From Parcubacteria group bacterium Licking1014_17 (GTDB lineage Bacteria; Patescibacteriota; Minisyncoccia; 2-02-FULL-40-12; IGHO2-01-FULL-4-A), in assembly GCA_007376485.1 (NCBI GenBank), contig VMGJ01000001.1:41788-105787 (forward strand): a stretch of 64,000 nucleotides of DNA. The letters are read 5' to 3'. The translations under genes and the position numbers were made by a program. This document shows, one piece after another, positions 3,442 through 46,504 of this stretch. Under the pieces are notes generated by a model. It searched no databases. It was not told where the DNA came from and was given only the letters and a program-made list of their open reading frames with translations. Numbering within the stretch: the stretch's first letter is position 1; the number at the start of each line of letters is the position of its first letter.

Positions 3442-5306
3442 AAAGAACCAAAGAAAGCGACGTGATGCCAGAAGAAACTCTTCTGGATTCCCGGAGCGAG
3501 CACACGATGATGGAAGCCCCCATAAGCCGGCTGGCTTTTAGATTTGTGTACTTCGTTATCGGCGCGGTGCTGGTTTTCTTTGTTGTTAAGGCGTTTCAGT
3601 TTCAGGTGGTCAGCGGTTCCAAATATGAACGCCAGGCAATCCGGAGCAACGAGGTGCTGTATTTTTTGCCGTCGCTAAGAGGAATAATTTACGACAGAAA
3701 CGGAAATCCGCTTGTTGAGAACATACCCCAGTTTGACGTCATGATACTGCAAAGCGATTTACCCCACGACCAACAGCAAATGGAATTGGAAATAGTATCG
3801 CTTTCAAAAATACTCGGGCTGTCCGAAGCGGACATCAGAAAAACTTTTGACGGCAATAGCGCCAACGCCATCTTCAAGATTAAAAGCGGCGTTGCCAAGG
3901 AAACGGCGATTTCTCTGGAATCCGAAAGTCTTCCCGGAGTGAGGGTGGTGGCTAACCCGCAGCGGAATTATTTTTACGGCTCCGCGTTTGCTCATATACT
4001 TGGCTATACGACTTTAGTCGGCCCCGAAGATATGGCGAGTGATTTTTATTATAAAACAATTGACCAGAAGGGGAGCACGGGTCTCGAGGCGTATTATGAA
4101 ACGGCTCTAAGAGGCGAGCACGGAATCGTAGATTTTAAAGATGAAACTTCAGAAGTTCAGCCGGCGCGGCTCGGAAACAGTCTGGGGCTCACCGCGGACA
4201 AAGATGTTCAGCTTCATTTATTCGATTCCGTAAGCAGAATTTTTAAAGCGTCCGGCGTTTCGCGCGGAGCGGCGGTTGTCCAGAACGTGAAAACAGGCGC
4301 GGTGTTGGGTCTCGTGAGCGTGCCGTCATTTGACCCAAACGCCTTTGAGCGCAGTTATGACGATAAATACAGAAATATTGTTAATTCGCTTTTGAATGAC
4401 ACGTCCCACCCGCTTTTCAACAGGGCGATCGCGGGATTGTACAGTCCGGGTTCAACAATCAAACCATTACTGGCGCTTGCCGGGCTGAAGGAGGGCGTGA
4501 TAACACCGCAGACGCTTGTCAACGCCCAGGGCAGTATTAGCGTCAGAAGCGAGGTTGACCCGAATGTGATTTACTCTTTCCGCGACTGGAAAGTCCACGG
4601 GCTGACCGACATCCGGAAAGCCATTTCCGATTCGGTGGACGTCTATTTTTATATTTTGGGCGGCGGCTATGAAAATATCAGAGGCTTGGGCGTGGACAAG
4701 ATATCCGAATATTACCGCATGTTTTTAGCCGACAGGGCATTGGGCATCGATCTTCTCGGTGAAGCGTCCGGTCTTGTGCCGGACAAGGAATGGAAGATGA
4801 AAACCAAAGGCGAAGCGTGGTATGTCGGCGATACCTATAATATTTCCATCGGGCAGGGCGACCTTAGCATTACGCCCCTCTGGCTCAATAGCTATATTTC
4901 CGCGATCGCCAACGGCGGCTACATTTACCGTCCGTATCTGGTTTCAAAAGAATTCAACGAGAAAGGCGAGCTGATAAGCGAAACGAAACCCGAAATAATC
5001 CAGAGAATAGATATCAGTTCCGCCATAATGAATGTCGTCCGCGAGGGCATGCACCGGACGACGACTACCGGCACCGCCCGCTCATTGAGTGATTTGCCGG
5101 TGCAATTAGCCGCCAAAACCGGCACCGCCCAGACGACGGGCTCAAATATGAATTCGCTTTTTACGGTTTACGGTCCTTACGGCAATCCCGATATAGTGAT
5201 GACCGTTCTGGTTGAAAATATTAAAGAGAGCCAGTCAATCGCGGTAAGAGTTGCGCATGATTTCTTGTCGTGGTATTTTGCAAAACCGGATAGGGATGTG
5301 AAGTAA
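3420..5306 (+). CDS. mrdA: penicillin-binding protein 2 (peptidoglycan D,D-transpeptidase)
   Basis: N-terminal TM + dimerisation domain; transpeptidase motifs 'STIKP' (SxxK), 'SDS' (SxN), 'KTGTA' (KTG); true start may be a downstream Met (3465 or 3507). Confidence 0.85.
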   Translation: MARIYKIKRTKESDVMPEETLLDSRSEHTMMEAPISRLAFRFVYFVIGAVLVFFVVKAFQFQVVSGSKYERQAIRSNEVLYFLPSLRGIIYDRNGNPLVENIPQFDVMILQSDLPHDQQQMELEIVSLSKILGLSEADIRKTFDGNSANAIFKIKSGVAKETAISLESESLPGVRVVANPQRNYFYGSAFAHILGYTTLVGPEDMASDFYYKTIDQKGSTGLEAYYETALRGEHGIVDFKDETSEVQPARLGNSLGLTADKDVQLHLFDSVSRIFKASGVSRGAAVVQNVKTGAVLGLVSVPSFDPNAFERSYDDKYRNIVNSLLNDTSHPLFNRAIAGLYSPGSTIKPLLALAGLKEGVITPQTLVNAQGSISVRSEVDPNVIYSFRDWKVHGLTDIRKAISDSVDVYFYILGGGYENIRGLGVDKISEYYRMFLADRALGIDLLGEASGLVPDKEWKMKTKGEAWYVGDTYNISIGQGDLSITPLWLNSYISAIANGGYIYRPYLVSKEFNEKGELISETKPEIIQRIDISSAIMNVVREGMHRTTTTGTARSLSDLPVQLAAKTGTAQTTGSNMNSLFTVYGPYGNPDIVMTVLVENIKESQSIAVRVAHDFLSWYFAKPDRDVK

Positions 5307-37658: not shown

Positions 37659-39815
37659 ATGAATTTTAAAGGCAAAAATATTTTTTACTACGCAAGCCGG
37701 TTGTTTTTCGGGTTCTTTGCGCTCGCCGGCATTTTTTATTTTTTATCGTGTGATGCCAGGGCGGCTGTCACAATGGACATGACCGCCTCCGCCGGCGTCA
37801 AATATGTCGGTACCACGTTTAATGTCAGTGTGAGGGTAAAGTTGGATAGTCAGAATATTGATACCGTTTCGTTGAGAAATCTGAACTTTGACCACGATAT
37901 TTTGGAAATAACCGGAACGTCCATCCAGAGCTTGTTTTCATCCCAAGCAACATTAAGAAATGTTACCGACAACACCGCGGGGACAAAAAGGCTCGATATC
38001 GGCAAATTGCCGCTAACCGATGATTACACCAATTCATCGGCAGCTACATTTGCAATTTTAACCTTTAAGGTGAAGAACGTTGGTACCGGAACGACAACCT
38101 TAACAATAGATTATGACGGTAGCCCGGGAAAATCCGGAGTTTTTTTGGCAGGAACAAATTATTTGGCGTCGGTGCTGCCGCTTGATGTTTCGCTTGGTTT
38201 GGACGACACGGGACCGGCTTTCAGCAATTGTACGCCCGTGGCTAACGTCGTGAACCAGCAGGTTACCGCCAACATAGTTTGCGACGTAACCGACACGGAG
38301 ACTGGAGTTTATCTGGGAGGTACGACTCTGACTGTCAACGGCATCACTTATTCCAATAGCGGAGCTAACCAGTACACAAGCGCCGAGATTGCCAACGGTT
38401 ACCAGTTGACCGTGAATCCCGAAGATAATCTGCCCTACAACACGTCCATAACGGTCAGCGGATCCGCGCAGGATAGCGCCTATGATGACGGTCCGGTACT
38501 GGCGCGAAATACCGGCACACTGGCGGAATACGCGTTTACCACCGAGGATGACGATGACGCGCCGACTATTTATAATAAAAGCCCCGACTCCGGCGCCACA
38601 AGTATTTCAGTGTCAACTAATGTCAGTTTTGGCATAAAAGACATTGCTGTTCCGGGAGACTATAATGGTCTTGGCGTTGATATTGATAGTATTCAAGTGA
38701 TTATATCCGCCGATAACTGGGGAACTGTAACCTACACTCACGGCGGCGAAAAACAATTCAGCCATTCCGGCAATCAATACGATTATACCATCACGATCAA
38801 CCCTTCGCCGGATTTTCCCCAAAATACCACCGTTACCGTAAGTATTGCCGCTGACGACCTGCACAGTTCACCTAATTCAGTATCCACCTCTTATTCGTTT
38901 ACCACGGCGGATACCTCTCTGCCGACATGTTCCAATTTTATACCGGCGGAGAATAAAGCGGATATCGAGCCAACCGACACTATCTCTTTTGATTGTTCCG
39001 ATTCCGGGGCAGGAATTAATATAGATACCATAAGCGTGATCGTTAATAAATCCACCTATACAAAATCAAAGAGCGGTTTTTCGTATACTGGCGACTCATC
39101 AAAATACAATATAGTCATAACTCCGCCGGGCGGATTTGCTTATGATTACGCTTTTGAGGTGATAATCAACGGCAGAGATATGAAAAGCAACTCAATAACG
39201 GAGACTAGCTACGGGTTGGCTACAAGAATACAAGGGGGAGGCGGCGGAGGCGGCGGAGGAGGAGGGGGAGGGGGAGGAGGAAATCAATGCCCGACCTGCC
39301 AAGTATGCCCGGCGCAACCATCGCCGGAATTTTCCAATGGGCCTTTGCCGACAGAAAATCCTTACTCAACTCCAAAACCCGGGAAAACACCCAATCCGGC
39401 CATTTGTCCTTCAATAGCACCCGAAGTTCCTTATCAAATACCGTTTGCCCCGACAATTGAAGATATGCAATCTGTCGCGTTGCAAAAAGTCAACGGGACC
39501 GATGTTCAAGGCATCACCATTTATCAAATATCCGGACCGATGATTACATTGGAAGGAACCGCGAAACCGCAGGGTTTGGTTGGCCTCCAAATGGAACCGG
39601 GACCGATTGTGGTCCAAACAATCGCCGACAACAAAGGTGAATGGAAAGTAACCATATCCAATGTTCTGGGTCCCGCCGAAAATCTGCTATACGCGATCTC
39701 CCGCAACCCAATTAACGGCGCCACGGAAAAAAAATTCCTGATTATCCTTCATAACACCTATAAAGGCATAGATGCTTATCTCCGGGCGCAAAAGATGAGA
39801 ACGCAACTTTGGTAG
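37659..39815 (+). CDS. cell-surface protein: cohesin-like N-terminal domain, three Ig-like repeats, poly-Gly + Pro-rich linker, C-terminal domain
   Basis: Signal/TM; 'TTFNVSVRVKLDSQNIDTVSLRNLNFDHDILEITG..ATFAILTFKVKNVGTGTTTLTIDYD' cohesin-like; repeated 'D(T/D)..P..S(N/P)..P' Ig-like units; 16xGly; 'NQCPTCQVCPAQPSPE..'. Confidence 0.6.
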   Translation: MNFKGKNIFYYASRLFFGFFALAGIFYFLSCDARAAVTMDMTASAGVKYVGTTFNVSVRVKLDSQNIDTVSLRNLNFDHDILEITGTSIQSLFSSQATLRNVTDNTAGTKRLDIGKLPLTDDYTNSSAATFAILTFKVKNVGTGTTTLTIDYDGSPGKSGVFLAGTNYLASVLPLDVSLGLDDTGPAFSNCTPVANVVNQQVTANIVCDVTDTETGVYLGGTTLTVNGITYSNSGANQYTSAEIANGYQLTVNPEDNLPYNTSITVSGSAQDSAYDDGPVLARNTGTLAEYAFTTEDDDDAPTIYNKSPDSGATSISVSTNVSFGIKDIAVPGDYNGLGVDIDSIQVIISADNWGTVTYTHGGEKQFSHSGNQYDYTITINPSPDFPQNTTVTVSIAADDLHSSPNSVSTSYSFTTADTSLPTCSNFIPAENKADIEPTDTISFDCSDSGAGINIDTISVIVNKSTYTKSKSGFSYTGDSSKYNIVITPPGGFAYDYAFEVIINGRDMKSNSITETSYGLATRIQGGGGGGGGGGGGGGGGNQCPTCQVCPAQPSPEFSNGPLPTENPYSTPKPGKTPNPAICPSIAPEVPYQIPFAPTIEDMQSVALQKVNGTDVQGITIYQISGPMITLEGTAKPQGLVGLQMEPGPIVVQTIADNKGEWKVTISNVLGPAENLLYAISRNPINGATEKKFLIILHNTYKGIDAYLRAQKMRTQLW
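39232..39282 (+). repeat. GGN codon homopolymer (16 consecutive Gly)
   Basis: 'GGGGGAGGCGGCGGAGGCGGCGGAGGAGGAGGGGGAGGGGGAGGAGGA'. Confidence 0.85.
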
Positions 39816-42495: not shown

Positions 42496-42825
42496 CTAAT
42501 TTCCGCCGTAACCCCCGCCGCCGAAACCGTGGCTTCCGCGGAATCCTCCTCCGCCGCCTTGTCTGGGCGGGCGGGCTTCCGGCGGGCGGGCTTCGTTGAC
42601 CGTAATGGTGCGGCCGTCAAATTCCTTGCCGTTCATGCCTTCTATGGCTTTTTGGGCTTCTTCCTCCGTGGACATTTCCACAAAGCCGAATCCCTTTGAA
42701 CGGCCGGACATTCTGTCGATAATGACTGCCGCCGACTCAACCGTGCCAAACTGGGCGAATGCCTCTTTCAGCTTTTCCTCGGTTGTATCGTAAGACAATC
42801 CTCCGACGTATAATTTCTTTGCCAT
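42496..42825 (-). CDS. RRM-type glycine-rich RNA-binding protein
   Basis: 'KLYVGGLSYDTTEEKLKEAF' RNP2, 'KGFGFVEM' RNP1, C-terminal 'GGGGGFRGSHGFGGGGYGG'; start set at MAKK (ORF extends to 42858). Confidence 0.8.
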   Translation of the reverse strand: MAKKLYVGGLSYDTTEEKLKEAFAQFGTVESAAVIIDRMSGRSKGFGFVEMSTEEEAQKAIEGMNGKEFDGRTITVNEARPPEARPPRQGGGGGFRGSHGFGGGGYGGN

Positions 42826-43018
42826 TTTTTCTGTACACACAACTAAACTAATTTGCAAGTCCGACCCTCGCTACTTTTTCCCTTTCGGACTCGCACATGT
42901 TTATTTGTGTAAGGAAGTAAAAAAATAGAAGCGCTTGCATCTAATATTAATAATAAGACATTCCGGGGGAGAAAGCAATAGAAGAGCAGCTGCCGGACGG
43001 GATGGTTAACTGCTATCC

Positions 43019-43071
43019 CTTTTATATTTAGTCGCCCGACTTCCTGTATCCCGGTTCGGGAAAATCTTTTT
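43019..43071 (+). repeat. ~52-nt direct repeat copy 2
   Basis: 'CTTTTATATTTAGTCGCCCGACTTCCTGTATCCCGGTTCGGGAAAATCTTTTT'. Confidence 0.6.
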
Positions 43072-43082
43072 CCTCACACAGC

Positions 43083-43116
43083 GACATTCTCACATTCTTG
43101 AGAATGTGAGAATGAC
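43083..43116. promoter_or_regulatory. 34-bp palindrome (candidate operator) upstream of ArsR-like gene
   Basis: 'GACATTCTCACATTC-TTGA-GAATGTGAGAATGAC' (one mismatch). Confidence 0.55.
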
Positions 43117-43127
43117 ATATTTTATAG

Positions 43128-43469
43128 GTGTGTTATGATGTATTTATGGGTGTGGGACTTTTTCATAAAAGAAATAGAAATAAAAATAAGTCTGCCAAAA
43201 CCGCCAAGCAGATGGAACGACATTTCAAGGGGATAGCCAATCACCGACGAATTGAAGTTCTACTTCTCATTGATAAGCATGGGGGAATAAGCGTGGAAGA
43301 AATAGCGGAAAGCGTTGCCTGCAATTTCAAAACAATTTCTGAACATGTGCGCCGGCTCGCGCAAGCGGGGCTTGTTGAGAAAAAATACAAGGGCCGTTTA
43401 GTCACTCACACCCTGTCTCCCTACGGTAAAATTTTTACTGAATTTATATTGACATTCTCACATTCTTGA
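43128..43469 (+). CDS. ArsR/SmtB-family winged-helix transcriptional regulator
   Basis: 'HFKGIANHRRIEVLLLI..ISVEEIAESVACNFKTISEHVRRLAQAGLVEKKYKGRLVTHTL' ArsR-type HTH; real start may be a downstream Met. Confidence 0.65.
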   Translation: MCYDVFMGVGLFHKRNRNKNKSAKTAKQMERHFKGIANHRRIEVLLLIDKHGGISVEEIAESVACNFKTISEHVRRLAQAGLVEKKYKGRLVTHTLSPYGKIFTEFILTFSHS

Positions 43470-43484
43470 GAATGTGAGAATGTC
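43451..43484. promoter_or_regulatory. 34-bp perfect palindrome overlapping ArsR-like stop codon, upstream of helicase gene
   Basis: 'GACATTCTCACATTC-TTGA-GAATGTGAGAATGTC' perfect 15-bp arms. Confidence 0.55.
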
Positions 43485-43522
43485 ATATTTTTTGGGAAGT
43501 GTGCTAGTGTTATTATGAATAT

Positions 43523-46504
43523 ATGGATAATTTTGAGCGCGAATATAAAAAGCTCAATCCGGAGCAGAAAAAAGCCGTAGACGAGGTTGAAGGGCCGGTA
43601 ATGGTTATTGCCGGGCCAGGGACGGGGAAAACAAAGGTTTTAACTTTACGGATTGCCAATATTCTGAAAAAGACCCAGGCGGAGCCGAGGGTAATTCTAG
43701 CGCTTACTTTTACCGAAAACGGGGCGGTGACAATGCGCCGGCGGCTGGCGGAAATCATCGGCGGAGCGGCTTATGAGGTTAACTTTTCCACCTATCACGG
43801 TTTTTGCAACGGCATAATTCAGCGTTATCCCGATAAATTTCCTGCCATAATCGGCTCGACGAACATAACCGAAGTGGAACAGATTGAATTGCTGGAAAAA
43901 ATTTTAAATGGCGCTCCCCAGTCGGAATTGAAACCGTTCGGCGACCCCTTGCACCACATCAAATCAATCAAAGGAGTCATCCGCGACCTGAAACGGGAGG
44001 GCGTCTCGCCCGAAGAATTTGAAAAAGCCGTCAAAGAGGAAGAAAAAGAGTTCCGCGCCCGCGAGGATTTGTATCATGAGAAAGGAAAATACAAGGGGAT
44101 GATGAAGGGCGAGCACCAGAAAACCGAAAGCAGAATCAAGCGCAATAAATTATTAATTCCTATTTACAAGGAACACGAAAAGGCTTTACGGGAGGGCAAG
44201 CGCTATGATTATGAGGATATGATAGTCAGCGTGCTTGATGTTTTAAGAGAGGACAAGGAATTCCTTCTGCTCCTGCAGGAGCAATATCAGTATTTTCTAG
44301 TTGACGAACATCAGGACACAAACAACGCCCAAAACAAAATTCTTGAACTTCTGGCGGGTTATTTTGACAGGCCGAATCTTTTCGTGGTTGGCGACGAAAA
44401 GCAGGCGATTTACAGATTTCAGGGCGCTTCCATCGAAAATTTTTTGTATTTCAGGAATTTATATAAAGACGTTAAGTTAATAAATCTGAACAGCAATTAC
44501 CGCTCGACCCAGACAATTTTAGACGCCGCCATCGGTTTAATGGCGGGAAGAGATAATATTTCAGGACTAAAAGCCGAAACCGGCAATAAGGAAAAGCCGG
44601 TGATGATTTACGGTTTCAGTCTGCCGGCGGTTGAGTATTATTTTATTGCGCGCGACATCAAGCAGAAAATCAAGGAAGGCGCCGATCCGGGAGAAATCGC
44701 GGTTTTTTGCCGGACCAACCGCGAAACCTCACCTATAAGCAGGACTTTTGAAAAATTAGGCGTGCCATTCATTAACGAATCGGAATACAGCGTTCTTGAT
44801 GATGTTGACGGCAAAGCGTTTATTTCCATCCTGCGGGCGGTTAATAATTTCGGCGAAAGCGAATATTTGATTTCATTGCTCCATCTGGACATTTTTGGCA
44901 TTAAACCGCTTGATGCCTATAAAATAATCGCCTATGCCGGCGGAAAAAATTTGTATGAGATTATAAAGTCCGAGGAAAAATTAAAATCAGCCGGCGTTGA
45001 GGATGAGGAAGTGCCGATGGAACTTTATAAGAAATTGGAAAATTGGAACATAAAGGCGAACAACGAAAATTTAATAAACGTCTGCGAATTGATTTTGAGC
45101 GAGTCCGGACTTTTGAGGCGGGCGCTGAAAAAGCCCAACGCCGTTGATGCTGTCGGCCGTCTGGGGCGCATTTGCGACGAAGCTGAATCGCTGATAATAA
45201 GCCGGAAAAACTGCGTTTTCGGTGATTTTGTCTCTTATCTGGATACTTTAGACAAACACGAACTGACCTTCAAGTGTCGCGACAGCGAATTCGTGCCGGA
45301 AGGCAGAGTCCGGCTGATGACCGCCCATGGAGCGAAGGGGCTGGAGTTTGATTATGTTTACATAACCGGCGCCAATGATAAGCGCTGGGGCAACAGATGG
45401 CGGGCAGAATCATTCAAGCTTCCACCGCGTCTTCTGACGCTGTCCAACAAGCCGGCGGAGCAGAAAGACGAAGACGACGACGAAAGAAATCTGTTTTTCG
45501 TGGCTCTGACGCGGGCGCGCAAAGAAGCGGTTATTGTCTATTATCTTGGCACTCAAGACGGGAGAGAAGCGATGGAATCAAAATTCGTCGCTGAACTGAA
45601 AAAAGAGCTTGTGAAAAGAGGGGACACCGAAACCATAGAAAAAGAATTTATCGGGAAATCCGGCGAATTGCTGGCCCCAGCTCCTGATAAAAAACCGGAT
45701 TTGGAAGATAAAAAATTCCTGGCGGGACTTTTTGCCGAACGCGGTTTTTCGGTGACTCATTTGAATAATTATTTAAAATGCCCATGGAGATATTTTTACG
45801 TCAATCTTCTGCGCATTCCCCAAAAACGCGATGATGCCCTGATTTTCGGCAGTGTGATCCACAGGGCGCTTCAGATATTTTTCAATAAGGCGGCCGCGCT
45901 CAAAAAAGTGCCTCCCCTAACCTTACTTCTTAAAGCTCTTGAAGGCAGTTTTATTAATATGCCTTTCAACGAAAAAGAAGCGAAGGGTTGGCTCAAGCGG
46001 GGGCAGGAAGCTATTTCCGGCTGGTATAAAGCCAACAGCGGTAAATGGCGAACTGACATTTTATCCGAACTTTACATAAGCGAGGTGTGGCTGTCTCCAG
46101 AAATCCGGCTGACGGGTAAATTGGATAAGGTTGAATTGCTTGGCGGAGGATGGGTTAATGTCGTTGACTATAAAACCGGAAGGCCGAAATCGCGCGGCGA
46201 AATAGAAGGCAGAACTTATAAATCCGACGGCGGCTACAAACGCCAGCTGGTTTTTTACAAATTACTGCTGGATAAATATCAGAATGGCAAATATAAAATG
46301 AAGACGGGAGAGATTGATTTTGTGGAGCCGAACGATAGTGGAAAATACAAAAAAGAGGCGTTTGAAATTACCGGCGGCGAAACCGAAGAACTGGAAAGAT
46401 TAGTCAAAGAAAAAGCCGGAGAAATAATTAACGGAGAATTCTGGGACAAAACCTGCAGCGACCCAAAGTGCGAGTGGTGTGAACTTCATAGGAAAATCTC
46501 ATGA
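43523..46504 (+). CDS. UvrD/PcrA/AddA-family ATP-dependent helicase fused to C-terminal PD-(D/E)xK (RecB-like) nuclease
   Basis: 'LNPEQKKAVD', Walker A 'GPGTGKTKV', 'LVDEHQDTN', 'VVGDEKQAIYRFQGA', C-terminal 'VVDYKTGRPK..YKRQLVFYKLLL' nuclease core and Cys cluster 'CSDPKCEWC'. Confidence 0.8.
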   Translation: MDNFEREYKKLNPEQKKAVDEVEGPVMVIAGPGTGKTKVLTLRIANILKKTQAEPRVILALTFTENGAVTMRRRLAEIIGGAAYEVNFSTYHGFCNGIIQRYPDKFPAIIGSTNITEVEQIELLEKILNGAPQSELKPFGDPLHHIKSIKGVIRDLKREGVSPEEFEKAVKEEEKEFRAREDLYHEKGKYKGMMKGEHQKTESRIKRNKLLIPIYKEHEKALREGKRYDYEDMIVSVLDVLREDKEFLLLLQEQYQYFLVDEHQDTNNAQNKILELLAGYFDRPNLFVVGDEKQAIYRFQGASIENFLYFRNLYKDVKLINLNSNYRSTQTILDAAIGLMAGRDNISGLKAETGNKEKPVMIYGFSLPAVEYYFIARDIKQKIKEGADPGEIAVFCRTNRETSPISRTFEKLGVPFINESEYSVLDDVDGKAFISILRAVNNFGESEYLISLLHLDIFGIKPLDAYKIIAYAGGKNLYEIIKSEEKLKSAGVEDEEVPMELYKKLENWNIKANNENLINVCELILSESGLLRRALKKPNAVDAVGRLGRICDEAESLIISRKNCVFGDFVSYLDTLDKHELTFKCRDSEFVPEGRVRLMTAHGAKGLEFDYVYITGANDKRWGNRWRAESFKLPPRLLTLSNKPAEQKDEDDDERNLFFVALTRARKEAVIVYYLGTQDGREAMESKFVAELKKELVKRGDTETIEKEFIGKSGELLAPAPDKKPDLEDKKFLAGLFAERGFSVTHLNNYLKCPWRYFYVNLLRIPQKRDDALIFGSVIHRALQIFFNKAAALKKVPPLTLLLKALEGSFINMPFNEKEAKGWLKRGQEAISGWYKANSGKWRTDILSELYISEVWLSPEIRLTGKLDKVELLGGGWVNVVDYKTGRPKSRGEIEGRTYKSDGGYKRQLVFYKLLLDKYQNGKYKMKTGEIDFVEPNDSGKYKKEAFEITGGETEELERLVKEKAGEIINGEFWDKTCSDPKCEWCELHRKIS

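Follow-up and report, generated by a model that had tools for sequence, protein, structure and literature searches.

Repressors of the ArsR/SmtB family, among them SmtB, CzrA, CadC, HlyU, NolR and PagR, are winged-helix proteins of the dimer type, about 100 amino acids (aa) long, with an inverted-repeat operator over their own promoter and co-directional genes downstream; HlyU, NolR and PagR are non-metal members of the family. To our knowledge, almost nothing is known of gene regulation in the candidate phyla radiation (CPR), whose members are mostly uncultured. Here we analysed a stretch of 64,000 nucleotides from Parcubacteria group bacterium Licking1014_17 (the window; 188-kb contig VMGJ01000001.1, positions 41,788 to 105,787 of the forward strand), in which a small regulator gene lies between two copies of a long palindrome and is followed by a gene for a helicase-nuclease. 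The locus shares with the repressors above the fold, the size and the dimer type (here known from sequence and a model), an inverted repeat over the regulator's predicted promoter, and a co-directional downstream gene. We consider it rather probable that the ArsR/SmtB-fold protein whose gene lies between the two copies recognises the palindrome as its own site in double-stranded DNA, and that the palindrome serves autorepression and recurs elsewhere as dispersed repeat copies. Such copies, derived by insertion, are dispersed in Patescibacteria and in a few other phyla, with sequence and arm symmetry maintained; since the palindrome is scattered through many CPR genomes, even in frame in housekeeping genes, it is not a switch reserved for the helicase next to it.

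The bracketing palindromes and their regulator

A sequence-only reading of this DNA had described two palindrome copies bracketing the regulator gene, the second of them over its stop codon, and this arrangement was confirmed, with none expected by chance (expectation for the pair 0.00 in 100 shuffles). The features concerned are as follows.

43083-43116, no strand: palindrome copy 1, four ACATTC/GAATGT hexamers at 8-bp spacing, one mismatch; probable autoregulatory operator
43083-43149, + strand: promoter-operator module 1, from the palindrome to the regulator ATG
43131-43139, + strand: extended -10 TGT-TATGAT, 6 nt before the regulator ATG (43146), predicting a leaderless mRNA
43146-43469, + strand: regulator gene, 107 aa, ArsR/SmtB-fold winged helix with wing-tip Arg R84; its last five codons and its stop lie in palindrome copy 2
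43451-43484, no strand: palindrome copy 2, perfect, -72 to -39 from the helicase ATG, overlapping the regulator stop

The 34-nt palindrome GACATTCTCACATTCTTGAGAATGTGAGAATGTC is perfect in copy 2, with 17 + 17 nt paired around a 2-nt centre, and carries a single mismatch (T to A at 43115) in copy 1; its invariant inner core, ATTCTNNAGAAT, occurs within the 64 kb only at these two sites. Each arm consists of two ACATTC hexamers 8 bp apart, so that the whole site holds four hexamers, two direct and two inverted. Copy 1 extends from -63 to -30 relative to the regulator ATG, which is itself a predicted start, and on the right it runs into the -35-like ATGACA of the regulator promoter. The regulator TGA stop (43467-43469) sits centrally in copy 2, and the C-terminal residues LTFSHS are therefore encoded by the left arm.

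The public annotation of the source contig likewise has open reading frames (ORFs) of 107 aa for the regulator and 993 aa for the helicase. The sequence-only description of the regulator as ArsR-like was borne out by Pfam, by sequence matches in the PDB and by the predicted fold. Pfam returned the winged-helix families HVO_A0114, MarR and HTH_5/ArsR, HTH_5 with 24.2 bits (cut-off 22) and the other two with higher scores, and the NCBIfam HTH_metalloreg score of 48.1 bits is under the ArsR/SmtB cut-off of 55; the searchable literature yielded nothing on HVO_A0114. At the sequence level, the PDB gave weak matches to ArsR-family proteins of solved structure. An AlphaFold2 model (mean predicted local distance difference test score 84.7) has the topology a1-a2-a3-a4-b-b-a5, with helices at residues 20-30, 33-45, 50-57, 61-73 and 92-105 and strands at 77-82 and 85-90, and its top Foldseek matches in the PDB were CadC, HlyU, CzrA and SmtB (template modelling score 0.6-0.75, probability 1.00). 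By its modelled fold the regulator belongs to the ArsR/SmtB family. PADLOC matched it to winged helix-turn-helix (wHTH) proteins of the Csa3/CARF type. No metal, metalloid or thiol sensor ligands (CXC in a3, D-x-H-x10-H-x2-E in a5, paired Cys) are conserved in an alignment of 33 family sequences: helix a5 lacks a conserved His/Asp/Glu set, the lone Cys that precedes the recognition helix gives way to G, A or S in a number of sequences, and the regulator has no sensor motif for a releasing signal. The family comprises at least 961 protein clusters, and every named source is a member of the Patescibacteria. Its recognition helix (NFKTISEHVRRL here, residues 60-71; N-x-K-T-I-S-E-H-x-R-R-L) is essentially invariant, as are the ATTC/GAAT cores of the site.

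The bracket is a trait of the whole family. All of the first four regulator homologues sampled by protein identity had one copy just upstream and another over the stop. Of 82 metagenome loci ascertained through the regulator (L130-L211), 78 could be evaluated for the upstream copy and 74 of these had it; a copy over the stop, in a constant register, was seen in about 77 of 80. The C-terminus TF(S/Q)HS or a close variant, which is the translation of the left arm, was found in 30 of 33 diverse homologues. The bracket variant commonest in metagenomes is asymmetric, ACATTC-CA-ACATTCT TG AGAATGT-GA-GAATGT (L121, L124, L127, L133, L137, L139, L147, L158 and L176); both copies of a locus, and several lineages, show the same asymmetry in the same orientation, despite the otherwise strong symmetry. 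In one locus only (L124, 401-3779), some 6 kb separate the regulator cassette from rnpA, a gene for a DnaA C-terminal domain and dnaN, which places it near a probable replication origin.

The position of the upstream copy was compared over 65 distinct family promoters. Past this copy, in gene direction, -10-like hexamers occurred at offset 5 in 24 of the 65 (14 of them with TGn) and at offset 2 in 14, and the same offsets on the opposite flank gave 3 and 1. In most of these promoters about 6 nt separate the -10 from the ATG, so that a leaderless mRNA is predicted. A -10 at offset 5 puts the -35 position on the palindrome centre TTGAGA, and a CA centre with offset 2 puts it on TTCTCA. Family-wide, the upstream copy thus appears to form the -35/spacer part of the regulator's own promoter, and a site filling this region has the classic position of an autorepressor operator. 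The centre TTGAGA was also considered as a -35 element in general, which was rejected for solitary copies, as their orientation relative to genes (20 starts, 42 ends) and the lack of a -10 peak showed; its predicted role as a -35 holds only for the regulator's own promoter. The order of -10 box and ATG, with no Shine-Dalgarno sequence, is shared by the family genes and the helicase of the window, so that leaderless mRNAs are predicted for Patescibacteria; certain family genes, such as those of L133 and L139, have instead a leader of 20-40 nt with a purine-rich, Shine-Dalgarno-like stretch.

Protein and site also co-vary. Across 68 distinct proteins, the wing-tip arginine (R84 in our regulator) is kept in all 56 loci with the canonical inner hexamer ACATTC, and in 9 of the 12 loci with the variant A(T/A)ATTC it is replaced by His, Asn, Thr or Ala, a variety of substitutes that implies several independent replacements. 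No other protein column has as high a mutual information with the inner hexamer (Fisher p = 4.5e-9, kinship ignored), and the predicted contact is that of the wing arginine with the C:G pair of this hexamer. Such co-variation supports direct binding and is the strongest in silico evidence that the protein reads this DNA. Together, the family-wide bracket, the -35/spacer position and the co-variation of wing residue and base pair give strong in silico support to the autoregulatory operator that the sequence-only reading had postulated, and the bracket palindrome is probably the regulator's own promoter-operator. The four hexamers would be enough for two dimers. Bound regulator would occlude RNA polymerase and thereby repress its own gene, and the copy over the stop codon may act as a second operator, as a hairpin or as both, gating read-through into the downstream gene.

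The helicase-nuclease gene and its duplicated promoter module

Downstream of the regulator lie the following features.

43451-43526, + strand: promoter-operator module 2, from the palindrome to the helicase ATG, with a 9-nt insertion relative to module 1
43508-43516, + strand: extended -10 TGT-TATTAT, 6 nt before the helicase ATG (43523), part of the duplicated module
43523-46504, + strand: helicase-nuclease gene, 993 aa, UvrD/PcrA-type superfamily 1 helicase with a C-terminal PD-(D/E)XK (Cas4/AddB-like) nuclease

The second palindrome copy adjoins the helicase gene as first described, but the gap from copy 2 to the ATG at 43523 counts 38 nt rather than 39. The palindrome itself was also present as described, but it is only part of a longer repeat that runs through the extended -10 to the ATG: positions 43083-43128 and 43451-43496 are 93% identical, 43130-43149 and 43507-43526 are 85% identical, and an alignment of both modules from palindrome to ATG has 58 identical positions of 66 and one 9-nt indel. 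Palindrome, extended -10 and an ATG exactly 6 nt on were therefore duplicated as a set. Because the promoter module is duplicated before the helicase, co-regulation of the helicase is plausible and even probable, and it could proceed through its own promoter copy, through read-through from the autoregulated promoter, or through both.

This wiring is lineage-specific and not a conserved pairing. None of the 82 regulator-ascertained loci contains a homologue of the helicase, and helicase orthologues elsewhere have the palindrome at their 3' end or none. The proposed operator of the helicase-nuclease is thus plausible for this genome, but it is not conserved and the downstream gene is variable; judged from the sequence, it is reasonable to suppose that the regulator may control the helicase, but in this genome only. 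Across the family, the gene after the cassette is co-directional in 53 of 66 cases and often begins merely 4-40 nt past the palindrome, and the downstream genes fall into 48 Pfam families among 63 genes. About a quarter act on nucleic acids or nucleotides, a proportion that comes without a background comparison and is suggestive: NUDIX and cytidylyltransferase-like proteins were counted 5 times each, GNAT 3, helicases 3, SNase 2 and GIY-YIG 2, and UvrB, UDG, RadC and DpnI once each. The helicase gene is a lineage-specific downstream 'cargo' of the regulator cassette.

The helicase itself matched UvrD-helicase, UvrD_C and PDDEXK_1 in Pfam, and all its NCBIfam equivalog scores are far under the cut-offs, so that it can be assigned to the AddAB/RecBCD-type architecture class only. 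Its domain architecture is like that of AddA/AddB/RecB-like proteins with a helicase and a PD-(D/E)XK nuclease, but it consists of one polypeptide, and no AddB/RecC-type partner is encoded close by. PADLOC gave generic UvrD-type matches only (GajB and RTasHel) and no defence-system signature. Among the neighbouring genes examined (a wHTH gene and a weak DUF3232-like ORF) there was no GajA-like partner as in Gabija; no search was aimed at Nhi. Membership in a known anti-phage system (as Gabija GajB or as DRT RTasHel) was rejected, since the matches are generic and a signature partner is lacking, and the compact inducible DNA-repair or defence module of the sequence-only reading is, with these results, unsupported as a conserved unit.

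Elsewhere in the window, two terminator-like hairpins on the + strand (42999-43019 and 43049-43061) lie between copy 1 and the gene for an RRM RNA-binding protein (42496-42822, - strand), with no + strand ORF upstream of them. The 260-nt leader of this divergent RRM gene was searched for unusual RNA structure and showed none (z = -0.76). An ORF of 718 aa at 37659-39815 (+ strand) has an N-terminal hydrophobic segment and, in a long G-rich tract, codons for 16 consecutive glycines. Over the whole 64 kb no Rfam family reached its gathering score, hence no tRNA, rRNA, riboswitch or RNase P RNA in the window, and around the site no family was found at the E-value level either.

Dispersed copies and competing explanations

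A scan of one genome per GTDB species, with 22 core bases specified, gave at least 120 stretches with at least 133 copies, and the tallies from it are those among the matches listed. The palindrome occurs in Saccharibacteria, Nomura-, Yanofsky-, Vogel-, Jorgensen-, Moran-, Kaiser-, Wolfe- and Doudnabacteria and others, all Patescibacteria, and also in metagenome-assembled genomes (MAGs) labelled Planctomycetota, Chthoniobacterales and Phycisphaeraceae; one Planctomycetota-labelled MAG has five loci across 2.3-4.8 Mb of a single scaffold of 69% GC. Copy number appears low, at least 4-5 per MAG, with about one copy per 30 kb of retrieved sequence. A palindrome common irrespective of context, which the sequence-only reading had regarded as the sign of a generic repeat, is what the comparison across genomes showed, whereas the 64-kb window holds only two copies. 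Among the matches listed, a regulator homologue was found in 22 of 120 loci and a helicase homologue in 3-4; the 246 flanking proteins fell into 209 clusters, of which that of the regulator was the sole sizeable one, and the start-adjacent genes represented 89 Pfam families among 83 proteins. A conserved regulon for the dispersed copies was rejected because the neighbours are so varied and solitary copies have no -10 peak. No copy was found in 2.9 million viral contigs or in plasmid and phage collections, and a phage or plasmid origin was rejected on this basis. Integron attC sites, cores of tyrosine or serine recombinases, DNA-uptake sequences and CRISPR repeats were provisionally set aside: neither recombinase nor cas genes were noticed in the vicinity, the arms pair perfectly with no extrahelical bases, and the copy number is low. 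Rfam and the searchable literature yielded no description of the palindrome or of its pairing with a protein.

Some copies lie in frame inside genes. Hosts confirmed by Pfam are MnmA, YchF (two genomes, two positions), GltX, Dus, an HhH-GPD glycosylase and TspO; two further candidates (L026 and L031) were dropped, their host ORFs having no Pfam support. The encoded peptide is (K/Q/R)HSHIL(K/E/Q)NVRM, the other open frame reading LFSHSQECENV. In a protein alignment of YchF the palindrome corresponds to extra segments of about 11 residues in linker regions, and a perfect 32-bp palindrome within a coding region argues for insertion, not point mutation. In the TspO/MBR gene, a copy occupies the same codon position in three distant lineages (L121, 12966-12997; L129, 4645-4676; L048, 2943-2974), where 30 of 35 columns are invariant against 53% in the rest of the gene, and third codon positions are invariant in 8 of 12 cases against 41 of 151 elsewhere (p = 0.007). 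This constancy, which includes synonymous sites, indicates that the DNA sequence itself is maintained.

Several local observations accompany these. The L129 stretch has a further copy just upstream of the same TspO gene (4384-4415). GTPase genes adjoin 5 of 133 copies among the matches listed: two copies are inside YchF at different positions (L045 and L050), two just past the YchF stop (L046 and L049), and one just past a longer Obg-like GTPase that clusters with YchF (L056). A Nomurabacteria contig (L100) carries three strict copies (913, 3030 and 5909) and three degenerate ones in 8 kb, with the common left flank AAAATAACA, a local hotspot, and its stretch also encodes a regulator paralogue, 32% identical and without the bracket. 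Related small ORFs of one cluster are preceded by the palindrome in another Nomurabacteria contig (L004, 3789-3814) and in a Verrucomicrobiota-labelled Chthoniobacterales MAG (L029, 3045-3070), and two start-adjacent genes match Pfam Zincin_1; this likeness may reflect transfer of gene and site or mis-binning.

The arms of the palindrome change together. Among 120 distinct bracket palindromes, 11 of 17 arm pairs had changes on both sides, double-changed cells numbered 147 against 73 +/- 9 in shuffled sets (none of 500 shuffles reached the observed value), and the arm covariation score was 0.196 against 0.04-0.14 in slid controls. Four pair types were seen at the dinucleotide between the hexamers, and two copies in one genome may differ while each is internally compensated (L187, L170 and L205). 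The flanks beyond the core lengthen the palindrome more than by chance (mean 1.5 against 0.5 bp). Upstream copies, which are not transcribed, are as symmetric as transcribed ones, which implies that the constraint acts on DNA and not solely on an mRNA hairpin; candidates for such a constraint are a cruciform, shape read-out by a symmetric oligomer and templated arm-to-arm correction.

As regards the dispersed copies, the favoured reading, in which the palindrome is the binding site of the autoregulated protein, would make them further binding sites of the same protein, with titration, roadblock, organisation or a selfish element as candidate roles. A number of observations weigh against this reading. 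Binding, transcription start sites and repression are all inferred, and the statistics for both protein-site co-variation and arm covariation ignore phylogeny. The compensated symmetry at spacer positions, where the base itself is free to vary, points to an extra constraint beyond simple dimer binding. Neither the stop-overlapping copies nor the solitary ones have a -10 peak downstream. In the window, the -10 boxes sit 18 nt (counted from the 32-nt palindrome core of copy 1) and 27 nt past the palindromes, where the family norm is 2-5 nt. With 27 nt in between, copy 2 reaches to about -39 in the putative helicase promoter (its palindrome core to about -40) and overlaps none of the core promoter elements, so that direct repression there would be weaker on geometry. 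Lastly, copies lie tight against gene ends, nearer to these than to starts (on crude gene calls), and convergent settings outnumber divergent ones by 28 to 13 among the matches listed, unlike an ordinary regulon.

Alongside the autoregulated-site reading, we tentatively put forward a broader one, to which we give somewhat less than even credence: a protein-partnered palindromic element of a new type, made up of a leaderless autoregulated wHTH cassette and a 32-36-bp site that was spread by insertion and is maintained. If it exists, such an element might span Patescibacteria, Planctomycetota and Verrucomicrobiota, in-frame positions in essential genes included. It could then be either a relation like that of repetitive extragenic palindromes (REPs) to their REP-associated tyrosine transposases (RAYTs), but without a transposase, or a genome-wide DNA landmark system in the CPR.

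That the palindrome is a selfish element like REPs or Rickettsia palindromic elements (RPEs), with the regulator and its two copies as the 'master' unit (compare REP-RAYT-REP) and an accidental helicase adjacency that has no effect on expression, seems to us rather unlikely. In its favour, the copies are dispersed in very varied contexts, the in-frame insertions are in housekeeping genes and include two YchF positions, the same AT-rich sequence recurs in Planctomycetota of 69% GC and in Verrucomicrobiota MAGs, and solitary copies are without promoter geometry; the cassette is complete in itself, having a promoter of its own and a leaderless ORF, and its flanking genes differ among lineages. 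However, the protein of 95-107 aa is a DNA-binding domain only, and with no catalytic domain it is no transposase on its own. The zero count in the viral, plasmid and phage sets speaks against mobility of this kind, and the positionally conserved TspO copy with its constant synonymous sites argues for function or maintenance and against recent mobility. A selfish element would be compatible with autoregulation, and it differs from the favoured reading mainly in the meaning of the helicase and of the dispersed copies.

It is improbable that the palindromes are purely structural RNA hairpins, acting as intrinsic or bidirectional terminators or as stabilisers of mRNA 3' ends with no protein recognition, in which case copy 2 would terminate the regulator transcript and copy 1 would insulate it from upstream transcription. 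The stems of the two window copies are strong (DNA -12.5 and -16.1 kcal/mol, RNA -18.3 and -24.2 kcal/mol, RNA z about -6 to -7), both pass a consensus terminator scan with T-rich tracts downstream, copies are found near gene ends and are enriched between convergent genes, and the compensatory changes preserve arm complementarity. Yet a terminator needs no near-identical sequence across phyla and in 69% GC genomes, and T-runs show no orientation, being found downstream of incoming genes in 23% of cases and in the other direction in 25% (207 oriented flanks). A general intrinsic terminator was rejected because T-runs are not oriented with incoming transcription and upstream copies lie before the predicted start, where symmetry is equally kept. 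The co-variation of the wing arginine with a base pair implies protein recognition, and strong terminators in the essential GltX and YchF genes would be harmful. Least probable of all is a chromosome-organising or segregation system like parS/ParB, matS/MatP or the archaeal centromere binder AspA, with the regulator as a site-specific nucleoid protein, the palindromes as its landing sites and autoregulation as incidental: several dispersed sites per genome, tolerated in coding regions, AspA among the sequence and fold matches, one regulator locus about 6 kb from dnaA/dnaN and the extreme conservation of protein and site would agree with it, but there is no partner ATPase or other conserved neighbour, AspA is one of many ArsR-fold matches and not the best, and insertion-derived 32-bp sites are unlike parS and matS, which are short and arise by point mutation.

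Comparison with described systems

Taken together, the sequence evidence would describe the locus as an autoregulated ArsR/SmtB-type repressor whose operator doubles as a dispersed, partly intragenic palindromic repeat. It provides a regulator-operator pair conserved across the CPR with an explicit promoter model, in which the -35 is in the palindrome, the -10 follows 2-5 nt after it and the mRNA is leaderless, and this model and the predicted arginine contact are directly testable with purified protein. That the repeat is kept in essential genes and in GC-rich members of other phyla raises a new question: does it behave as a selfish element partnered by a DNA-binding protein, or does it provide landmarks throughout the genome? 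In annotation, the adjacent regulator and helicase should not be read as a dedicated repair or defence module.

Compared with known ArsR/SmtB repressors, the regulator has no conserved sensor motifs and an NCBIfam score below the cut-off; four hexamers make up its operator, which has a 15-2-15 layout where theirs is 12-2-12, another copy lies over the stop codon, the site is also a dispersed and partly intragenic repeat, and there is no conserved target operon. The resemblance to REP/RAYT systems and REPINs lies in short dispersed palindromes, mostly near gene ends, and in one conserved gene flanked by copies. However, the flanked gene here encodes a winged-helix DNA binder, whereas RAYT is an HUH Y1 transposase; some copies are intragenic, whereas REPs are extragenic; one sequence is shared throughout a superphylum, whereas REPs differ from species to species; and the copy number appears low. 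Like RPEs, the palindrome inserts in frame in housekeeping genes and adds a short peptide (here HSHIL-x-NVRM), but it measures 32-36 bp against 100-150 bp, belongs to Patescibacteria and other phyla and not to Rickettsia, and is associated with a gene for a DNA-binding protein. With CIRCE/HrcA it shares a long inverted repeat, nearly invariant in distant bacteria, and a conserved repressor, and either repeat could in principle act as an operator at the DNA level and as a hairpin at the RNA level; CIRCE, however, is a 9-N9-9 repeat with a conserved regulon (groE and dnaK), whereas the only conserved target here is the regulator's own gene.

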